Shown here one piece after another: positions 1 through 34,947 of a DNA stretch of 34,947 nucleotides (positions are counted from its first letter, which is position 1; the number at the start of each line of letters is the position of its first letter). Made by a program: the position numbers and the translations under genes. The DNA lies in the UHGV virus genome UHGV-0108399; one strand, 5' to 3'. The notes beneath the pieces are model-generated. The model ran no database searches, was not told the DNA's origin, and worked only from the letters and a program-made list of their open reading frames with translations. Source of the DNA: a virus.

Positions 1-1161
1 TTACCTCGTATTTAAGTAAACTACGTTCTCCTCTTGTGCCGTATTTGTGCCATTGCGACTTATAATCGCATCGATTTTGCTCGCGTGCTCGGTGAGATGC
101 CCAGCTGAAAGGTGGGCGTATCTTTGAACCATTTCGAGAGTTTCCCATCCTCCCATCTCTTTAAGTGCAAGAAGAGAGACACCGGACTGAACCAGCCAGC
201 TTGCCCAGGTATGCCTCAGGTCATGGAAGCGGAAGTTGCTAATGCCTGCCCGCTTTAACGCTCCCTTCCATGCCTTGTTGCTGTCGGTTCTCATCTTCCT
301 TACCGCTGCTGTTTTTGTTCCGTCGCTTCGGTAGGCAGGTTTGGTGTGGACAAATACCCATCTCTTATGGAGCCCCTGCTGTTTTCTTAATATCTGGCAT
401 GCGGTTTCGTTAAGAGGAACTCCGATCGCATTGCCAGCTTTTGTTTCATCAGGGTGCATCCATGCCATTTTCTTATCCAGATCGACCTGTGACCACTCAA
501 GGTCTGTAACGTTGGAACGGCGAAGGCCTGTCGTGATTGCAAACATGACCACAGGGAAGAAATGAGGAGCAATTTCTGCAAACAGGCGCTTCGATTCCTC
601 CTCTGTAAGCCATCTGATGCGTCCATTCTTAACGCGTGGTGTTGATATTTTGGGTGCCCTGTCAAGCCATCCCCATTCAACAGCCATATTGAGAATGGCG
701 CGAAGTATTGCCAGATGCCTCGTCTTCGTTCCTTTGCTTGCCAGCTTTGGTTTATACTCCGGCACCGGATTGCCAAGTCGCAAACACCTGTCCCGGCTCA
801 TCTCCCAGTTCAGGCGATGGCGGCGGTTTTCCATCCCGTCTACCGCCTCCATTATTTTTTCTGTTGTTATGTCAGAGAGAATGGCTTCTCTGAAGTGCAA
901 CATCCAGAACGATATAATGCTCTTGTCATCATCAATGGACTTCTTATCCGATTTCTCACGCAGCCACCGTATGCAGGCTTCCTTGAATAGCTTTTTCGGT
1001 GATTCCCCGAGATTTTTTACTCTCCACGCTTCTGCTTTCAGACGATCGTGAAGTTCTTGCGCTTGCCTTTTGTCCGATGTTTCAAGAGAGCGTCTAACTC
1101 TTGATCCATCTGGCGCGACGAAATCGCAGTGCCACGTGCCACCGCGTAGTTTGATTGACAT
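1..1161 (-). CDS. int: Tyrosine recombinase / phage integrase (P22 Int-like)
   Basis: 386 aa; C-terminal catalytic motifs (HDLRHTWASWLVQ ... MVQRYAH) typical of tyrosine integrases; N-terminus resembles P22 Int; stop codon at window position 1-3. Confidence 0.9.
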   Translation of the reverse strand: MSIKLRGGTWHCDFVAPDGSRVRRSLETSDKRQAQELHDRLKAEAWRVKNLGESPKKLFKEACIRWLREKSDKKSIDDDKSIISFWMLHFREAILSDITTEKIMEAVDGMENRRHRLNWEMSRDRCLRLGNPVPEYKPKLASKGTKTRHLAILRAILNMAVEWGWLDRAPKISTPRVKNGRIRWLTEEESKRLFAEIAPHFFPVVMFAITTGLRRSNVTDLEWSQVDLDKKMAWMHPDETKAGNAIGVPLNETACQILRKQQGLHKRWVFVHTKPAYRSDGTKTAAVRKMRTDSNKAWKGALKRAGISNFRFHDLRHTWASWLVQSGVSLLALKEMGGWETLEMVQRYAHLSAGHLTEHASKIDAIISRNGTNTAQEENVVYLNTR

Positions 1162-26614: not shown

Positions 26615-27092
26615 TTTAGTTCTTGCGGCATTACGTAAGCTCGGTGTGGCATCAAATGCCACGTTAACCGATGTCGAACCGCAGTCTATGGAAGACGGCG
26701 TCAACGACCTTGAAATGATGATGGCTGAATGGCTTGGCGGTGATGCGTCACCTGGTATCAACGTTGGCTACATTTTTGCTGATGCAGATGTTGCTCCGGA
26801 TCCGGGCGATGAGCACGGTTTATCAAATAACGCTATCAATGCCGTCATTTTCAACCTTGCCTGCCGAATTGCTCCAGATTATGCGCTGGAAGCGTCTGCA
26901 AAACTTATAACCACTGCCAGATACGGGAAAGAGCGACTCGTCAAACTGTCTGCAATGGACAGGGCAAAAGCAGCTAAATGTAAGTCCGGTTATCCAAACC
27001 GTATGCCTGTTGGTAGTGGTAACCAGTTTGCGAAGTGGAATGGTTGGAATTACTTCCACCGAAAGGAACCTTGCGATAACGGGAGCGAATAA
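26592..27092 (+). CDS. Head-completion / portal-closure protein (P22 gp4-like)
   Basis: 166 aa from [33 protein letters not shown]...; the track ORF start 26505 is a frame extension through the repeat. Confidence 0.8.
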
Positions 27093-28510
27093 TGCCTATT
27101 CAGAAACTTCCGCTTATGAAAGGTGTCGGCAAAGACTTCCGAAACGCCGATTATATCGACTATCTGCCAGTGAATATGTTGGCTACACCCAAAGAAATCC
27201 TCAACAGTAGCGGATATCTTCGCTCATTCCCGGGCATTGCCAAACGTTCTGATGTGAACGGTGTATCTCGAGGCGTCGAGTACAACATGGCGCAGAGTGC
27301 TGTTTATCGCGTGTGCGGGGGCAAGCTGTATAAGGGCGAAAGCGAAGTCGGTGATGTTGCCGGAAGTGGTCGTGTATCAATGGCGCATGGTCGGACATCA
27401 CAGGCGGTAGGCGTTAATGGTCAACTGGTCGAGTATCGCTATGATGGCACGGTTAAAACAGTCTCAAACTGGCCTACAGACAGCGGATTCACTCAGTATG
27501 AGTTAGGTTCAGTCCGCGACATTACACGCTTACGTGGGCGTTATGCGTGGTCAAAAGACGGCACGGATTCATGGTTTATCACTGACCTTGAAGACGAATC
27601 GCATCCTGACCGTTACAGCGCACAATATCGCGCAGAATCGCAGCCGGACGGCATCATCGGCATAGGTACATGGCGAGACTTCATCGTCTGTTTTGGTTCA
27701 TCGACGATTGAATATTTTTCCCTGACTGGTGCAACCACCGTTGGTGCTGCTTTGTATGTCGCACAGCCATCGCTGATGGTGCAGAAAGGCATTGCCGGAA
27801 CCTACTGCAAAACGCCGTTTGCTGATTCCTATGCGTTCATCAGCAATCCGGCAACAGGTGCTCCGTCTGTATACATCATCGGATCCGGTCAGGTTTCACC
27901 AATCGCCAGCGCGAGCATTGAGAAAATTCTCCGCTCCTACACTGCTGATGAACTGGCTGATGGCGTGATGGAATCGCTGCGATTTGATGCTCATGAGTTG
28001 CTGATTATCCACCTTCCGCGCCACGTCCTCGTGTATGACGCATCTTCAAGCGCTAATGGTCCGCAATGGTGTGTGCTGAAAACAGGCATGTATGACGATG
28101 TGTACCGCGCTATCGACTTCATTTACGAAGGCAATCAGATAACGTGCGGCGATAAGCTGGAGTCCGTGACCGGGAAATTGCAGTTCGATATCAGCAGTCA
28201 GTATGGTCTTCAACAGGAACACCTGCTGTTTACTCCGTTGTTCAAAGCGGATAACGCCAGATGCTTCGATCTGGAGGTGGAATCATCCACTGGCGTAGCT
28301 CAGTACGCCGACCGCCTGTTCCTTTCTGCAACCACTGACGGCATAAATTACGGGCGTGAGCAGATGATTGAGCAGAATGAACCGTTCGTTTACGACAAAC
28401 GCGTTTTGTGGAAGCGTGTCGGGCGAATCAGGAAAAATGTCGGCTTCAAACTTCGCGTTATCACGAAGTCACCTGTAACTCTGTCTGGCGCTCAGATAAG
28501 GATTGAGTAA
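27092..28510 (+). CDS. Tail hub / head-completion protein (P22 gp10-like)
   Basis: 472 aa, same length and position as P22 gp10. Confidence 0.85.
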
Positions 28511-29211
28511 TGGCGGATTCATCACTGAATAATCCTGTCGCGGTTCAGGCTACGCGCCTTGATGCTTCAATTTTGCCACGCAATATATTCAGCCAGTCTT
28601 ACCTGCTGTATGTCATAAATCAGGGTGCTGATGTCGGTGCAATTGCCGGGAAGGCAAATCATGCTGGTCAGGGCGCTTACGAAGCCCAGGTAAAAAACGA
28701 TGAACAGGACGTCGAACTGGCTGATCACGACGCAAGAATCACCGCAAACACAAAAGCGATAAATCTCCTTGAGGTCAGGTTAACAACCGCCGAAGGGAAG
28801 ATAGTCGTACTGCGTAGCGATGTTGATTACTTGCTGGATGAGGTTATCGATATTCAGGCGCATCTGGTCACTGTTGACAAAAGACTGGATAGCGTAGAAA
28901 GCGATGTATCTGACATTAAGAGTGATTACGTATCAAAAACTGTAACCGAATCGCAGTCTCTTGCGTCACCGCTGGATGTAAAAACATCATATTCAGTTGA
29001 TGGAATTCAGGTCGTTGGAGCAAGGCATACCGGATGGACAGCGGCCACAGGCACACCACTTCTTGGCTCATTCAACGCTAACCAGTCATACACAGTCGGC
29101 ACTACGTACACACAATCCGAAGTCGCAGCTATCGCTACAGGTTTGCAGCAGGCGCGGCAGCGTATTCTGGCGCTTGAAACAGCACTTAGATTACATGGGC
29201 TGATTGACTGA
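28510..29211 (+). CDS. Tail needle (P22 gp26-like)
   Basis: 233 aa, same length as P22 gp26; conserved N- and C-terminal tips, variable coiled-coil core. Confidence 0.85.
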
Positions 29212-29666
29212 TGATTACATTCAAACCAACGCGAAACATCGACCTGATAGAAGCCGTGGGAAATCACCCCGACATTATCGCCGGGAGCAACAACGGTGAT
29301 GGATACGACTACAAACCTGAATGCCGTTACTTTGAGGTGAACGTGCACGGGCAGTTCGGCGGAATTGTTTACTATCAGGAGATTCAGCCACTGACATTCG
29401 ATTGCCACGCCATGTACCTGCCAGAGGTTCGTGGATTCAGCAAGGAAATCGGGCTGGCGTTCTGGCGATACATTCTGACCAACACCACCGTTCAGTGCGT
29501 CACATCATTTGCTGCACGCAAATTCCGCCACGGGCAGATGTACTGCGCAATGATTGGCCTTAAGCGTGTAGGAACCATCAAGAAATACTTCAAAGGCGTG
29601 GATGACGTGACGTTTTACAGCGCCACACGCGAAGAACTAATCGACTTCCTGAATCACGGGAGATAG
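29211..29666 (+). CDS. Virion assembly protein (P22 gp14 position)
   Basis: 151 aa between the tail needle and ejection proteins; assigned by synteny. Confidence 0.6.
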   Translation: MITFKPTRNIDLIEAVGNHPDIIAGSNNGDGYDYKPECRYFEVNVHGQFGGIVYYQEIQPLTFDCHAMYLPEVRGFSKEIGLAFWRYILTNTTVQCVTSFAARKFRHGQMYCAMIGLKRVGTIKKYFKGVDDVTFYSATREELIDFLNHGR

Positions 29667-29668
29667 CC

Positions 29669-30364
29669 ATGTTATATGCATTTACGCTGGGCAGAAAACT
29701 GCGCGGCGAGGAACCTTATTGCCCTGAAAAAGGCGGGAAAGGTGGCAGTTCTGATAAAAGCGCAAAGTATGCCGCAGAAGCTCAGAAGTATGCCGCAGAC
29801 CTGCAGAATAAGCAGTGGCAGACGATCATGAAAAACCTTGCTCCGTTCACGCCACTCGCTCAGCAGTACGTATCACAATTGCAGAATCTTTCCTCTCTTC
29901 AGGGGCAAGGTCAGGCACTTAACCAGTATTACAACTCTCAGCAGTACAAAGATCTTGCTGGTCAGGCTCGCTATCAGAGTCTGGCTGCAGCGGAAGCAAC
30001 AGGTGGATTGGGTTCCACTGCAACCGGTAATCAGTTAGCAACAATCGCACCAACGCTTGGTCAGCAGTGGCTGTCTGGTCAGATGAACAACTACCAGAAT
30101 CTGGCAAATATTGGTCTTGGCGCACTGCAAGGTCAGGCAAACGCCGGGCAGACATATGCCAACAACATGAGTCAGATTTCGCAGCAAAGTGCGGCTCTTG
30201 CCGCTGCTAATGCCAATAAACCATCAGGTCTTCAGACAGCAATTAGCGGCGGAGCTTCAGGGGCTATGACTGGCGCTGCTCTTGGCTCTATTGTTCCCGG
30301 ACTTGGCACTGGATTAGGTGCGGCAATTGGCGGCGGACTTGGCCTGCTTGGATCGTTGTTTTAA
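29669..30364 (+). CDS. Ejection protein (P22 gp7-like)
   Basis: 231 aa; Q/N/G-rich low-complexity region and glycine-rich hydrophobic C-terminus, typical of P22 gp7. Confidence 0.75.
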   Translation: MLYAFTLGRKLRGEEPYCPEKGGKGGSSDKSAKYAAEAQKYAADLQNKQWQTIMKNLAPFTPLAQQYVSQLQNLSSLQGQGQALNQYYNSQQYKDLAGQARYQSLAAAEATGGLGSTATGNQLATIAPTLGQQWLSGQMNNYQNLANIGLGALQGQANAGQTYANNMSQISQQSAALAAANANKPSGLQTAISGGASGAMTGAALGSIVPGLGTGLGAAIGGGLGLLGSLF

Positions 30365-30373
30365 GGGGTAATC

Positions 30374-31705
30374 ATGGCTACTTGGCAAGGATCAAATGGC
30401 GGATTGTTGGCTGGTATCGGCGGCGTCAACTCAAACGCTCCGAGCGTAAATGACATCGGCAATACGCTTCAGCTTATCAGGCAGAACAATGATATTGAGC
30501 GTTCAGGCGCTAACAATGTTGGGCTGACTGCTTTGCAAGGCCTTTCAGGTATTGCGGGGGTGTTTCAGCAGGAAAAGCAGGCTCAGCGGCAGAAAGAATT
30601 TCAGCAGGCATACGCTAATGCTTATGCTTCTGGTGATCGCGGAGCTTTGCGTCAGTTGGCTACTCAATATCCAGACCAGATTGAATCCGTTCGTAAAGGC
30701 ATGGGATTCATCGATGAAGAGCAGCGTAATTCTATCGGCACCTTAGCGGCTGGCGCACGCCTTGCGTCATCGTCTCCAGAAGCAATGCAATCATGGCTGC
30801 AAAACAACGCCGGTGAGTTAGCTCGTGTTGGCGTTAATCCTCATGACGTCGCTCAGATGTACCAACAGAACCCGCGGCAGTTCGGCGAATTTGTCGATCA
30901 CCTGGGGATGAACAGTCTCGGGCCAGAAAAATACTTTGACCTACAGGATAAAATGCAGGGTATCCAGGTTACCATGCGCGGTCAGGATCTGGATTCGCAA
31001 ACCGCCGCTCGGAATCAGGCAATCACAATGCGCGGACAAGATATCCAGGCGAATTTAGGTCAGCAGCGCATTAATCTGGACGCAGAAACAAACCGCATTA
31101 ACAACGAAAATAAGCGCCTTGACCGGATGCTATCAGCGGAAACTAACGACCTGAAGCGCCAGGAAATACAGAGCCGCATAGCAGCCAACAACCAGCAGTT
31201 GCAGCAGAAGCAGCAAGCGCTAAATGATGGCTACAAAGACGGCATCAACACCCTCACAACCAGCATGTTCACTCTGAACGATATCGTTAGTTCTCCTTCA
31301 CTTAAGAGCATTACAGGCTTACGTGGAGTAATCCCCAACGTTCCAGGCTCACAGGCTGCAGACACTCAGGCACGACTTGATACCTTTAAATCACAAGCAT
31401 ACCTGACAGCGGTTCAGGCCATGCGAGGCATGGGCGCACTTTCTGATGCCGAGGGCAAAAAGCTCGACCAGGCTGTTGGTTCGCTGCAGAACTCGCAGAG
31501 CGAGGAGTCCTTTCGTCGCAACGCTGGCGTCATCCTGAACACGCTCAACCAGAAGCGTAATGAGGCGGTTGGTAAGTACGTTCAGCAAAACGGTATCAAG
31601 CGAGTGGAAGCGCCTCAGGCTTCTATAGATTACCTGAAGCAGCACCCCGAGCTGTCAATCGACTTCATTAATCGCTACGGATATCTTCCATCTTTGGGGC
31701 AGTAA
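30374..31705 (+). CDS. Ejection protein (P22 gp20-like)
   Basis: 443 aa; position and composition match P22 gp20. Confidence 0.75.
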   Translation: MATWQGSNGGLLAGIGGVNSNAPSVNDIGNTLQLIRQNNDIERSGANNVGLTALQGLSGIAGVFQQEKQAQRQKEFQQAYANAYASGDRGALRQLATQYPDQIESVRKGMGFIDEEQRNSIGTLAAGARLASSSPEAMQSWLQNNAGELARVGVNPHDVAQMYQQNPRQFGEFVDHLGMNSLGPEKYFDLQDKMQGIQVTMRGQDLDSQTAARNQAITMRGQDIQANLGQQRINLDAETNRINNENKRLDRMLSAETNDLKRQEIQSRIAANNQQLQQKQQALNDGYKDGINTLTTSMFTLNDIVSSPSLKSITGLRGVIPNVPGSQAADTQARLDTFKSQAYLTAVQAMRGMGALSDAEGKKLDQAVGSLQNSQSEESFRRNAGVILNTLNQKRNEAVGKYVQQNGIKRVEAPQASIDYLKQHPELSIDFINRYGYLPSLGQ

Positions 31706-34099
31706 ATGGCTAATTACCGTGATTTGTTAGAGCAGGCTGGCGCACGTTACGGTGTGCCAGAAGGGTTGATGACTGCACTGGGTGCCAAGGAGTCTTCTTA
31801 CGACCCTGCCGCAGTAAGCTCCGCCGGGGCTGTAGGATTGACTCAGGTCATGCCTGGGACATGGCGTGATATGGGTTATACCGATGAGCAAATGCAAAAC
31901 CCCGAATATCAGGCTGACGCTGGCGCGCGCTATCTGGCAAAGATGTACCAGCAGTTTGGTAACTGGCGTGACGCTCTTCAGGCTTATCACGACGGTCCCG
32001 GCAACGTTATGAAGGCAAAGCGTGGTGAATATACGCCAGGACCTGAAGGCCGCGGTTACGTTGATGATCGCTTTGCTCAATGGGCGGGTGACCCGGTGAC
32101 AGACTCAACAGTCGAACAGCGCGCCACCTCTGCAAAGGTACATCCTCAGCAAGACCCTAACAACCCGTTTGCACAACTGGAAGTACAGTCATCCGAACAA
32201 GTATCGGCATCAGGTGTGCAGTCAGACCCAAATAATCCATTTGCTCAGATTGAGCAGCAGGCAGCCAGTCAGCAGCCACCTCAACCCGTAAGTTCTGTCG
32301 CACCGAAACCTGTTCAGCAACAAGGCGGAATAATGTCTGACCTTGGTAATGGACTTGCTGAAACCGGGCGCGGCTTACTACAGGCAGGAATCAACGTGGC
32401 GAACATACCTGCTGAACTCACTGATGCTGTAACAAGCGCGGCGGCTTGGGCTGGCGGTAAACTCGGCATTGGCGATGGTACATATCAACCAGCACCACGA
32501 TTAACAACGCAGGGATTAGAGCAGGACTTTGGCCTTCAGCAAGGAGCGCTGACTCCACAAACGACAGAGGGAAGGGTATTTGCTGAAGCATTGCCTTACC
32601 TCACTCCTGCCGGCGTTGAGAGAGCGGCAACACAGGCACCAACACTTGCTGGTCGAATTGCTCAGGGTGCAACTCGCCTTCTCGCTGAAAACGCAGTTGG
32701 ATCACTTGCTGCAAACAGTGTGAAAGATGATGCGGAAGCACTAGCCACCGACTTAGGCGTTGGCGTTCTGGCTGGCGGAGCTATTAACGCTGCCGGACGT
32801 GGATTAGGTGCTGCTTATCGTGGAGTTCGTGGTGCGATAGCGCCAGAAGCGCAACAGGCTATCAGGTTTGCAGAGCGTGAAGGAGTGCCTCTGCACACCA
32901 CAGACCTGTTACAACCTACTTCCCGCGTCGGAAAAATGGCGCAGACTACAGCAGAAAATATCCCTCTGGCTGGCACAAGCGGAATGAGAGCAACGCAACA
33001 GGAAGCGAGAAGCCAGTTGGTGCAGAGATTTGCTGATAAATTCGGTGAGTATGATCCAGCTGTTGTTATTGAAAGCCTTAAAGCGAAAACATCAGGAATT
33101 CGTCGTGCTGCAGGTAATCGACTTGAACAGGTTCAGAATGCAATGGCGGGAGTCAACATTCAGCCTGTGCGAGCAATTCAGCAGATTGATACTGAGATAT
33201 CTAACCTGCAGAAGCTTGGTAAGGTCGCTGATAACGAGACGATTTCAAAACTTCAATCCTATCGTGATGAGCTTATTCGCAATGCTGGTCATGATGGTCC
33301 GGTAAATCTGGATTTGAAGCAATTAAGCGATCTGCGCAGCCAGTTCAGAATGGACGTGAAGGGTGAGCGACCAGTGTTACCAAATCGTTCCGATGCCGCC
33401 ATACAGCGCGTTTACAAGGCGATGACCGACGATATCAATGGTGCCATTGGTCATAATCTTGGCAACGATACTCTCCGTAAATATCAGCAGGCCAATGCCG
33501 TCTACGCTGACGAAGCGGCGAAACTAAAGAATACCAGGCTGAAGAATGTTCTCATGAAAGGCGACCTGACACCGGAAATTGTCAACAACATGCTATTCAG
33601 CAAGAACAAATCGGAAATTAAGACGCTGTATAACTCAGTTGGTCGTGTTGGCAGGGCGCAAATGCGCAATGGCATCATTGGAAAGGCGATGGAGAAATCT
33701 GGCGGATCCCCTGACCAGTTCCTTCGGCAGCTTAACATCCTGCAAAACCAGACTGGCATCACATTTAAGGGGCAGGATGCTGCTTATCTGAAAGGATTGA
33801 AAAATTACCTTCAGTCCACTCAGCAGGCAGCAAAAGCGGCAGTAACAACACCCACAGGGCAGCAAACCATCCCGTTCATTATCGGGTATGGGACGGCAAT
33901 GAACCCGGCGACAACTGGCGCAGCAGTAAGCTACGGACTTCTTACTCGCGCCTATGAGAGCGAACCATTCAGAAATGCAATGCTCAGAATGGCAAACACC
34001 CCACGCGGATCAACAGCCTTTGAGAAAGCAATGCAGCAGGCACAAAAGGCAATTAACGCTCTGACGCAGGGGGCTAAGTCTGATTCGTTGTCAGAATAG
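31706..34099 (+). CDS. Ejection protein (gp16 position) with N-terminal soluble lytic transglycosylase domain
   Basis: 797 aa; N-terminal SLT motif (GAKESSYDPAAVSSAGAVGLTQVMPGTWRDMGY); long A/G/Q-rich extended region; internal DPNNPFAQ duplication. Confidence 0.75.
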   Translation: MANYRDLLEQAGARYGVPEGLMTALGAKESSYDPAAVSSAGAVGLTQVMPGTWRDMGYTDEQMQNPEYQADAGARYLAKMYQQFGNWRDALQAYHDGPGNVMKAKRGEYTPGPEGRGYVDDRFAQWAGDPVTDSTVEQRATSAKVHPQQDPNNPFAQLEVQSSEQVSASGVQSDPNNPFAQIEQQAASQQPPQPVSSVAPKPVQQQGGIMSDLGNGLAETGRGLLQAGINVANIPAELTDAVTSAAAWAGGKLGIGDGTYQPAPRLTTQGLEQDFGLQQGALTPQTTEGRVFAEALPYLTPAGVERAATQAPTLAGRIAQGATRLLAENAVGSLAANSVKDDAEALATDLGVGVLAGGAINAAGRGLGAAYRGVRGAIAPEAQQAIRFAEREGVPLHTTDLLQPTSRVGKMAQTTAENIPLAGTSGMRATQQEARSQLVQRFADKFGEYDPAVVIESLKAKTSGIRRAAGNRLEQVQNAMAGVNIQPVRAIQQIDTEISNLQKLGKVADNETISKLQSYRDELIRNAGHDGPVNLDLKQLSDLRSQFRMDVKGERPVLPNRSDAAIQRVYKAMTDDINGAIGHNLGNDTLRKYQQANAVYADEAAKLKNTRLKNVLMKGDLTPEIVNNMLFSKNKSEIKTLYNSVGRVGRAQMRNGIIGKAMEKSGGSPDQFLRQLNILQNQTGITFKGQDAAYLKGLKNYLQSTQQAAKAAVTTPTGQQTIPFIIGYGTAMNPATTGAAVSYGLLTRAYESEPFRNAMLRMANTPRGSTAFEKAMQQAQKAINALTQGAKSDSLSE

Positions 34100-34262
34100 C
34101 TTTGCAAACACCAGAAATGTGCAAAAACCAAATATATAGAACGCAATATTCAACTGATCTTTTTGCATAGACTCATCTCATAGTTAACAAATCATAACTT
34201 ACATTAATGCAATGCCGGGCAAGTTGCATCTTGTTCCGCATTGCTACGTCTGGAGAAAATTA

Positions 34263-34947
34263 AATGACAGACATTACAGCCAATGTTGTAGTGAGTATGC
34301 CTTCGCAACTCTTCACTATGGCGCGTTCTTTTAAAGCAGTAGCCAACGGCAAAATTTATATCGGAAAAATTGACACTGACCCGGTAAGTCCAGAAAACCA
34401 GATTCAGGTTTATGTAGAGAACGAAGACGGCTCTCATGTTCCTGTTTCGCAGCCAATCATCATTAACGCTGCTGGATATCCGGTATATAACGGGCAGATT
34501 GCCAAATTCGTAACTGTTCAAGGCCATTCTATGGCTGTATATGATGCATATGGCACTCAGCAGTTCTATTTCCCTAATGTGCTGAAGTATGACCCGGATC
34601 AGCTACGGCAGCAGTTAGAAGACCCGGATGGTGCTAAAAAATATCCCGAATTGCAGATTGCACGATGGCGTGATGACAAAGATGTTCGCGGTTGGGGGGC
34701 TATCAGTGATGGAATAACTGACGCTACTGAGGCATTCTCTAACGCAGGCTATAGAATGTTTGTTCCTGATGGCGATTTTGCAGTAAATACTCTCGAAGTT
34801 GATGTATCTTCTGCTCGAGGTATTGGGAGGATTGTTGCAGATAATGGCTCTCTTATTTCCGTTTCTCGTCTACTTGAAACTGACAAACTTGCGCAGAGAA
34901 AAATGATGGAACCTTTTTTTGGTTTTCAGGGAGAAACAAACACAGAA
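34263..34947 (+). CDS. Tailspike protein, N-terminal part (P22 gp9-type head-binding domain + start of divergent receptor-binding domain); truncated by window end
   Basis: Hand-translated: [41 protein letters not shown] ... [15 protein letters not shown] ... NVLKYDPDQ closely matches the P22 tailspike head-binding domain; downstream sequence is not P22-like; no stop before the window end; GGAGA RBS. Confidence 0.85.

Follow-up and report, generated by a model that had tools for sequence, protein, structure and literature searches.

What kind of tailspike gene closes the virus genome UHGV-0108399, and what separates it from the gene upstream? In the 34,947 nucleotides (nt) of this genome that we analyzed (here called the window), an open reading frame (ORF) on the + strand begins with an ATG at position 34264, is preceded by a Shine-Dalgarno sequence (GGAG) at 34251-34254, and stays open for 228 codons (684 nt) through the last base. 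We propose, with a probability of roughly 0.85, that this ORF is the beginning of the tailspike gene of a P22-like Escherichia coli prophage, a gene that combines an Sf6-type anchor, a shared linker and cap, and a recombined propeller receptor module, with no immI region upstream. The window would end in the 5′ third of the tailspike gene of such a (Lederbergvirus) prophage; the gene would follow the last ejection gene in the late operon, as in Sf6, and the immI or "ant moron" cassette would be absent. The protein would consist, in order, of an Sf6-type head-binding domain (residues 1 to 113), a linker and cap common to other E. coli tailspikes (residues 114 to ~206), and, from residue ~209 on, a receptor module that may have been acquired via recombination at conserved boundary sequences.

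The tailspike gene and its modular structure

The part of the gene that lies in the window divides as follows.

34264-34602, + strand: residues 1 to 113, head-binding (tail-hub-binding) domain (Pfam PF09008, PDB matches)
34603-34740, + strand: residues 114 to 159, helical linker and start of a small cap domain (CUS-3 identity, AlphaFold models)
34675-34881, + strand: residues 138 to 206, small alpha/beta "cap" domain (model confidence, PHROG 8280, profile matches)
34888-34947, + strand: residues 209 to 228, predicted first strand and the sequence KMMEPFFGF, start of the putative propeller module (homologue alignment, model)

A preliminary description of this stretch had assigned the first ~110 residues to the head-binding domain of the P22 tailspike. 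Residues 1 to 113 match the full Pfam profile PF09008 (Head_binding) with an E value of 1.5e-67 (225.4 bits; cut-off, 24) and the head-binding domains of Sf6 gp14 (PDB 7sg7; E = 4e-67) and P22 gp9 (1lkt, 2vky, and 8tvr; E = 1e-50 to 1e-52), with Sf6 and P22 matches ranging overall from 1e-45 to 4e-67. Hence, the assignment is correct, far beyond chance. As to the type of domain, the Pfam family is that of P22, but the sequence is nearer to Sf6 and CUS-3 (92-93% identity) than to P22 (74-76%). The gene sits directly 3′ of homologues of gp7, gp20, and gp16 on the same strand (Pfam P22_gp7, 29669-30364; Inj_translocase, 30374-31705; PHROG 770, gp16-like, 31706-34099), which is the end of the late operon. 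In P22 and Sf6, the head-binding domain docks six trimers onto the tail hub (PMC9728967); by analogy with these two phages, the domain encoded in the window may do the same. When we searched 5,426 complete E. coli genomes with window positions 34100-34947, 997 of them held a >80% identical copy of the domain.

To follow the gene beyond the end of the window, we used P0012, a 799-amino-acid (aa) E. coli protein whose first 228 aa are 100% identical to the entire fragment. P0012 represents a cluster of 262 member sequences and is annotated only as "phage head-binding domain-containing protein." The same tailspike gene is intact in vB_EcoP-683R2 (99.9% nt identity; locus L001, 6365-8764), in strain MLI108K3 (100%; locus L003, 8265-10664), and in Gally (95.6% nt identity), the most active prophage of the adherent-invasive E. 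coli strain LF82. For fragment and full-length homologue alike, similarity to P22 gp9 ends at "YDPDQ" (residue 113). In BLASTP, the full-length homologue is 66% identical to P22 gp9 over residues 1 to 137, with nothing significant beyond, and no significant similarity to the receptor domain of gp9 was detected past residue ~113 of P0012. A receptor domain resembling that of P22 is consequently missing from the complete protein, as the preliminary description had expected.

The same description took the sequence after residue ~110 to be different. This holds with respect to P22, but the linker is not peculiar to this tailspike: residues 1 to 159 are 91% identical to the K1 endosialidase tailspike of CUS-3, and the linker is also present in P0023, another E. 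coli tailspike type. At the nucleotide level, the match to CUS-3 and 720R6 stops at 34712. In the AlphaFold models described below, the linker contains a helix at residues 111 to 138 with low to medium predicted local distance difference test (pLDDT) values, and the cap domain (residues 138 to 206) has values of 91-95. PHROG 8280, a colanic-acid-degrading tailspike family, matches residues 1 to 206. In its motif, the cap is reminiscent of the N-terminal caps in front of pectate-lyase-type beta-helices and of the N-terminal extension of endosialidases; profile positions 105-145 match the N-termini of phi29 gp12 and polygalacturonases (E = 5e-5 to 1e-3), and family members have weak matches to PF12218 and PF12708. 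Homologues without a head-binding domain (P0014, P0020, and P0026) align only from KMMEPFFGF, at residue 213 (~34900), and an AlphaFold model places a strand at residues 209 to 217. Since these alignments begin at residue 213, the window holds just ~20 residues of the true receptor-binding module, and the boundary of the receptor-specific part, previously put at residue ~110, has to be moved to ~213.

One further match concerns the linker and cap. Residues 213 to 278 of an 843-aa "tail spike protein" in the PDB (9vvr_A) match residues 113 to 175 of the window protein (E = 3e-14). Because this match is internal to 9vvr_A, the linker/cap segment is also an internal part of a larger, differently anchored tailspike.

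The suggestion that receptor specificity had been exchanged in a modular fashion agrees with the loss of P22 similarity past residue ~113 and is strengthened by the distribution of breakpoints. In the 997 matching genomes, most matches start 15 nt before the ATG, at 34249, and stop where the head-binding domain ends (34595-34621) or where the linker ends (34700-34712); only 41 reach the end of the window. Some genomes match 27000-34602 at ~95% identity and then diverge, and Gally has the tailspike in common with the window and not the upstream region. A single hairpin-bearing spacer, described below, is joined to at least 12 different post-head-binding sequences among IMG/VR contigs and E. coli loci. 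Joining of conserved head-binding domains (aa 1 to 115) to unrelated C-terminal parts has been reported (Villafane et al. 2008, PMC2629481). Neither the mosaic tailspike nor the layout without immI is new, and public phage and genome records already contain this gene. As described originally, the locus is one more case of textbook P22-like tailspike mosaicism and of the optional immI/ant moron, and adds little. It is the receptor module that is of moderate interest, its predicted fold being uncommon for a P22-like tailspike.

Fold and possible function of the receptor module

We built two AlphaFold2 monomer models of the full-length homologue, one from 16 aligned relatives (mean pLDDT, 76.6) and one from 51 (mean pLDDT, 83.8, with most of residues 140 to 600 above 90). 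Both have five four-stranded blades, from residue ~209 to ~530, followed by beta-rich C-terminal domains. Foldseek matched them to the receptor-binding proteins of phi11, 80alpha, and NF5 and to the P68 fiber; in structure comparison, those of phi11 and NF5 were closest. Scores for generic five-bladed propellers were 17-18 (YjiK), 15-16 (glutaminyl cyclase), and 12-15 (glycoside hydrolase [GH] families GH43, GH62, GH32, and GH130). The right-handed parallel beta-helix typical of P22, Sf6, and HK620 was not found; it is absent from CUS-3 too and so is no requirement for a tailspike of this kind. The predicted structure does have the five-bladed propeller and C-terminal beta "tower" domains of a phage adhesin. 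On these models, the receptor module would follow the "platform + tower" plan of phi11 and not the beta-helix plan of P22, Sf6, and HK620. This suggests that the module works like a phi11-type platform-tower adhesin; the predicted fold supports membership in that group, whereas the curated sequence threshold does not.

Sequence comparisons gave little on the propeller itself. PF21311 (Phage_RBD_prop) matches 4 of 16 relatives (best E value, 5.9e-4), and the P68 fiber matches with an E value of 0.01, so that the sequence link between the module and the phi11 type is suggestive only. A PDB sequence search with the full-length protein left the propeller unmatched and returned only the head-binding domain and a 60-residue stretch of 9vvr; a protein search with residues 110 to 228 alone returned only short fragments.

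The module belongs to a small family. An exhaustive profile search of 1.84 billion proteins yielded 203 cluster representatives (at 50% identity), in proteins of 600-1,450 aa and at varying distances from the N-terminus. The anchors of these relatives are T7-type (PF03906), of the tail-collar type (PF12571), or not recognizable, and their C-termini carry an S74 chaperone (PF13884) or none. By tblastn, phages with the module include the N4-like Gamaleyavirus PGN829.1 (gp49, 46.7%) and Bacillus phage GA1 (gp12; E = 3e-44), in addition to Pollock, several vB_EcoP phages, and Tetragenococcus phage phiYA5_2. The same propeller family would thereby stand behind T7-type, N4-like (PGN829.1), and phi29-like (GA1) adaptors, and this small family links coliphage tailspikes to receptor-binding proteins of staphylococcal, Bacillus, and Tetragenococcus phages. 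In P0023 (910 aa; 264 member sequences), this head-binding domain and linker are combined with a propeller module only 37% identical to that of P0012 and with a C-terminal Peptidase_S74 chaperone; hence, at least two propeller-type receptor modules circulate on this anchor.

Among 51 relatives with identities as low as 22%, no substitution was seen at G328 or E492, and Q238, R269, H295, K327, Q428, Y474, E494, and several Trp residues are at least 90% conserved. This conservation points to one pocket, which could be catalytic, ligand binding, or a structural metal site. According to our proposal, a central propeller pocket (Q238, R269, H295, K327, Q428, E492, and E494) would bind a host surface glycan and might cleave or modify it, and this binding would position the phage for needle-mediated DNA delivery. 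The tailspike type is functional: Gally virions, although they do not give plaques, lysogenize LF82 that has been cured of this prophage (PMC9928086).

Two accounts of the pocket's activity have to be considered. According to the first, which we regard as a serious possibility if somewhat short of an even chance, the propeller acts enzymatically, degrading or modifying glycans as a depolymerase whose catalytic site is new, and takes the part that beta-helix endoglycosidases play in P22, Sf6, and HK620. With the CUS-3 endosialidase, an enzyme of the propeller type is already known on this anchor and linker, relatives of the module carry the endosialidase-type S74 chaperone, and the strictly conserved Glu/His/Arg/Lys constellation would suit an active site. 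However, neither the full-length protein nor its relatives matched any glycoside hydrolase family by sequence, the scores of glycoside hydrolase propellers were far lower than those of the phage receptor-binding proteins and of the YjiK and glutaminyl cyclase propellers, and the GH43 catalytic triad was not identified.

[quoted passage not shown] The closest structures, the phi11 and NF5 receptor-binding proteins, are nonenzymatic. Gp45 of phi11 is a trimer with a stem, a five-bladed "platform," and a beta "tower," and its platform cavity, lined by two Gln residues, has been proposed to hold the GlcNAc of wall teichoic acid (PMC4901313); the module likewise has two Gln residues, Q238 and Q428, that are at least 90% conserved. 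Invariance of E492 and conservation of at least 90% for H295, R269, K327, and E494, down to 22% identity, resemble instead a catalytic or structural pattern, as the contacts of a pure binder normally vary. Also counting against a pure binder, we know of no P22-like phage studied so far that reaches the membrane without O-antigen cleavage.

The hosts bear on this second account. We found 44 complete genomes carrying the receptor domain at ≥98.3% nt identity. Seven are O83 strains (LF82 in two assemblies, NRG 857C, A0 34/86, and three others; the collection has 35 O83 genomes), at least 17 are O102 (60 of the 106 O102 genomes are listed), and about 20 are untyped. The O83 and O102 rfb clusters differ in gene content, and the presence of receptor domains this similar in both serogroups favors a shared ligand, although a few clonally inherited lineages might account for the spread. 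In strains of O11, O83, O86, and O102, relatives of PGN829.1 RBP1 were reported from prophages, and a non-O-antigen receptor was suspected (Pas et al. 2023, PMC10408124).

Several points weigh against our proposal for the receptor module. Only 228 of the 799 codons lie in the window, and continuation into the propeller is deduced from intact genes that are 100% identical over this part. The fold was predicted for a monomer, and its resemblance to phi11 Gp45 might reflect convergence rather than homology. PF21311 matches the full-length homologue with 16.5 bits (E = 0.0067), below the gathering cut-off of 23.7. The conserved acidic and basic residues could equally form a structural metal site, as in olfactomedin and glutaminyl cyclase propellers, and the data accommodate a lectin-like binder and an enzyme alike. 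Lastly, carriers in at least two O serogroups (O83 and O102) fit neither a one-serogroup model nor, given likely clonal inheritance, clear serogroup independence.

A more specific scenario would be that a P22-like coliphage swapped its O-antigen-cutting beta-helix for a phi11-type adhesin directed at a glycan feature that several serogroups have in common (O83 and O102, perhaps also O11 and O86), such as a GlcNAc epitope, enterobacterial common antigen, or capsule, and acting either without a depolymerase or with a new site built on E492 and on E494, H295, R269, and K327. We regard this scenario as unlikely in its full form. If true, it would open a way to adsorb independently of the O serogroup in a podovirus family for which serotype-specific cleavage of O antigen is considered necessary. 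The phi11-type "platform + tower" adhesin is otherwise characterized only in phages of Gram-positive bacteria. The module occurs in prophages of clinically relevant E. coli (LF82, other O83 strains, and many O102 isolates), so knowledge of its ligand would help to predict prophage host range and would show whether P22-like phages adsorb without a beta-helix depolymerase.

The junction with the ejection-protein gene and the flanking sequences

Upstream of the tailspike gene, the following features were recognized.

31706-34099, + strand: last ejection-protein gene, 797 aa, homologue of P22 gp16 and Sf6 gp13 (ORF list, Pfam, PHROG 770)
34100-34263, + strand: spacer of 164 bp, 35% G+C, at the position of the immI/"ant moron" cassette; encodes no gene
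34207-34229, no strand assigned: palindrome ATGCAA (34207-34212), N11, TTGCAT (34224-34229) (inverted-repeat scan)
34209-34244, + strand: imperfect hairpin of 7 bp, a C.C mismatch, and 7 bp (15-position stem) with the 6-nt loop TTGCAT

The preliminary description had given ~160 bp between the last ejection gene and the tailspike gene and had concluded that the P22 immI cassette (sieA, mnt, arc, and ant) is absent. The distance is 164 bp. We searched the whole window by tblastn with 17 immI-region proteins (P22 SieA, Orf59a, Mnt, Arc, and Ant, and proteins of Gally, CUS-3, and VSe13) and found nothing at an E value of <0.06. Small ORFs overlapping the spacer had no Pfam family above the cut-off; a 106-aa antisense ORF had two sub-threshold matches of zinc-finger type. 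The gap therefore contains no credible ORF, and the conclusion stands. In P22, 2,890 bp lie between genes 16 and 9, with six features (sieA, orf59a, mnt, arc, sar, and ant). Among related phages there is a gradient, from six genes (P22 and CUS-3) through mnt and two ORFs (Gally and VSe13) and mnt alone in a 423-bp gap (IME10) to none (Sf6, vB_EcoP-683R2, and this window). Such variation of the "ant moron" at the site between genes 16 and 9, with six genes in P22 and CUS-3 and none in Sf6, has been described (Villafane et al. 2008, PMC2629481), and the junction in the window is this known Sf6-type layout. It is present contiguously in at least 91 of the 5,426 E. coli genomes.

The spacer is 99.4% identical to that of 683R2 and 88.8% identical to the Sf6 gene 13-14 spacer, which is also 164 bp long. 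It is a composite. In IME10, gene 16 is likewise followed by the initial ~70 nt, and in Gally by the initial 45 nt; the final 15 nt stand in front of nearly all E. coli P22-like tailspike genes; and the ~80 nt in the middle are specific to the Sf6-type junction. The hairpin at 34209-34244 ends 6 nt before the Shine-Dalgarno sequence. It folds with -19.5 kcal/mol (z = -3.84; 0 of 200 shuffles as stable), and in relatives with -22.8 to -29.2 kcal/mol; across eight variants, 95% of its cells are paired. The minus-strand fold is weaker (-15.8 kcal/mol) because two pairs are G.U. Against a conserved RNA structure, no compensatory change was seen among the eight variants, a weak test since the search pattern fixed much of the 5′ arm. 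Another hairpin upstream, at 34120-34167, was not significant (z = -1.5). Scans of the spacer for Rfam families, sigma-70 promoters, and terminators gave no match. We considered an intrinsic terminator and rejected it, as the stem is followed by UACGUCUGGAG with no U-run and the terminator scan was empty there. We conclude that the hairpin is most likely a feature of the late mRNA, with a possible role in stability or processing, and neither an operator nor a terminator.

A palindrome ATGCAA-N11-TTGCAT had also been pointed out in the spacer. The sequence is there, but in this AT-rich spacer it does not exceed chance, since 24% of spacer shuffles hold at least as many six-base inverted repeats. 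Its 3′ half is the loop of the hairpin, and its halves are unpaired in the best fold. A reading of the repeat as a palindrome in its own right is thus unsupported. The pentamers TGCAA/TTGCA contained in it are a separate matter. They occur six times in the spacer, with 0.34 expected, at 34102/3, 34120, 34163, 34208, and 34224; this is the densest cluster in the window, and only 3 of 20,000 shuffles reach this number. CytR recognizes TGCAA-N-TTGCA or pairs of octamers spaced by roughly one helical turn, and a CytR operator has CRP sites within 5 nt of the half-sites, at a promoter (PMC3454398). The palindrome and the repeats could in principle be protein sites that regulate the tailspike gene, as a CytR-like operator or a relic of immI control, and both the excess of pentamers, with half-sites fitting the CytR consensus, and the invariance of four pentamer sites in seven relatives would agree with this. 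However, although half-site-like repeats are present, the spacer has no sigma-70 promoter-like site and no TGTGA-N6-TCACA or CRP half-site adjoining the repeats. Two of the repeats are arms of predicted RNA stems, and the G.U pairs make the hairpin strand specific, which argues for RNA over recognition of duplex DNA. In addition, the spacer is no more similar to Sf6 (~89%) than the flanking genes are. We consider such regulatory sites improbable.

The ejection protein has an SLT lytic-transglycosylase domain (PF01464) at residues 7 to 110 (E = 9e-25), and PHROG 770 ("DNA transfer protein") covers residues 108 to 797. From residue 192 on, it is 95% identical to a 665-aa protein of 683R2. The first ~190 aa, which bear the SLT domain, replace an unrelated 63-aa N-terminus in the 665-aa homologues of 683R2 and Sf6; IME10 has the 797-aa form, and P22 gp16 likewise lacks the SLT domain. 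A cell-wall-cutting domain on an ejected protein recalls T7 gp16.

That the tailspike gene in the source of the window is a truncated or inactivated remnant we consider very improbable: the window does stop inside the gene, remnants truncated by insertion sequences (IS) exist elsewhere, and MLI108K3 has a pseudogene next to its copy, but the reading frame is uninterrupted over all 684 nt, which match intact 799-aa genes with 100% identity, and the upstream virion genes in the window are intact ORFs. The IS-truncated remnants retain the 164-bp spacer and are interrupted after the head-binding domain by ISEc31 (locus L011, 565-870) and after 36 codons by IS100 (locus L012, 1659-1766). In MLI108K3, which is 100% identical to window positions 33000-34947, the ejection-protein gene is annotated as a 5′-truncated pseudogene (L003, 6319-8100), and the prophage remnant adjoins an "RNA-directed DNA polymerase" gene (L003, 13652-15948) that may belong to a retron or a group II intron.

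Genomes with the intact gene also indicate what may follow it. In 683R2 and MLI108K3, the tailspike gene is followed on the opposite strand by a GDSL/SGNH esterase gene (PF13472; E = 1e-21; L001, 8884-9420, - strand; L003, 10784-11320) and, further on, by a DUF1796 putative cysteine-peptidase gene (L001, 9580-10272, + strand; L003, 11516-12172). As this slot is the position of gtrABC in P22 and oac in Sf6, both are candidate lysogenic-conversion genes, possibly including a glycan deacetylase. Gally has a different small ORF in the slot. At the other end of the window, the ORF at 1-1161 (- strand) is a candidate integrase gene by position only, as 683R2 has a CPS-53-type integrase gene downstream of its tailspike gene. 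If it is an integrase gene, the window would lack ~1.7 kb of tailspike and ~1.6 kb of moron genes relative to 683R2 and may be a contig that broke in the variable tailspike region.

Comparison with known systems

Sf6 (NC_005344) has the same arrangement as the window: ejection gene, 164-bp spacer, and tailspike gene with no immI, and the spacer, including the hairpin, is ~89% identical. In contrast to the window, however, Sf6 encodes a beta-helix endorhamnosidase (gp14, 623 aa) in place of a 799-aa protein with a predicted propeller module, and Sf6 gp13 lacks the SLT domain of the window's ejection protein. As in the window, the tailspike gene of P22 (NC_002371) stands last in the late operon, and gp9 has a head-binding domain from the same Pfam family, with about 75% identity, but P22 has a 2.9-kb immI region, and its beta-helix endorhamnosidase has no detectable similarity to the module.

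CUS-3 (CP000711) shares with the window the sequence to residue 159 (91% identity) and a propeller-based module in place of a beta-helix. Its module combines a sialidase propeller of six blades with a beta-barrel insert and an S74 chaperone (PF12217, PF12195, and PF13884), and the sequences are unrelated after residue ~160; unlike the window, CUS-3 keeps the mnt and ant genes upstream. In 683R2 (ON470594) and Gally (OV696608), the protein is the same, with receptor domains 100% and 99% identical, respectively, but Gally has mnt and two further ORFs upstream of the tailspike gene. RBP1 (gp49) of PGN829.1 has the same module (46.7%) on an N4-like/G7C-type anchor, a subtype (X3) left unassigned by Pas et al. 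(PMC10408124).

The phi11 Gp45 protein (PDB 5efv), the 80alpha receptor-binding protein, NF5 Gp17, and the P68 fiber are trimeric phage adhesins with a five-bladed "platform" and C-terminal beta domains, the architecture predicted here. Sequence identity between these proteins and the module is 14-15%, with PF21311 below its cut-off. In phi11, the platform follows an N-terminal coiled-coil stem on a siphovirus baseplate and is directed at wall teichoic acid GlcNAc of a Gram-positive host, whereas the module encoded at the end of the window would be carried by a podovirus head-binding anchor and would serve infection of E. coli.

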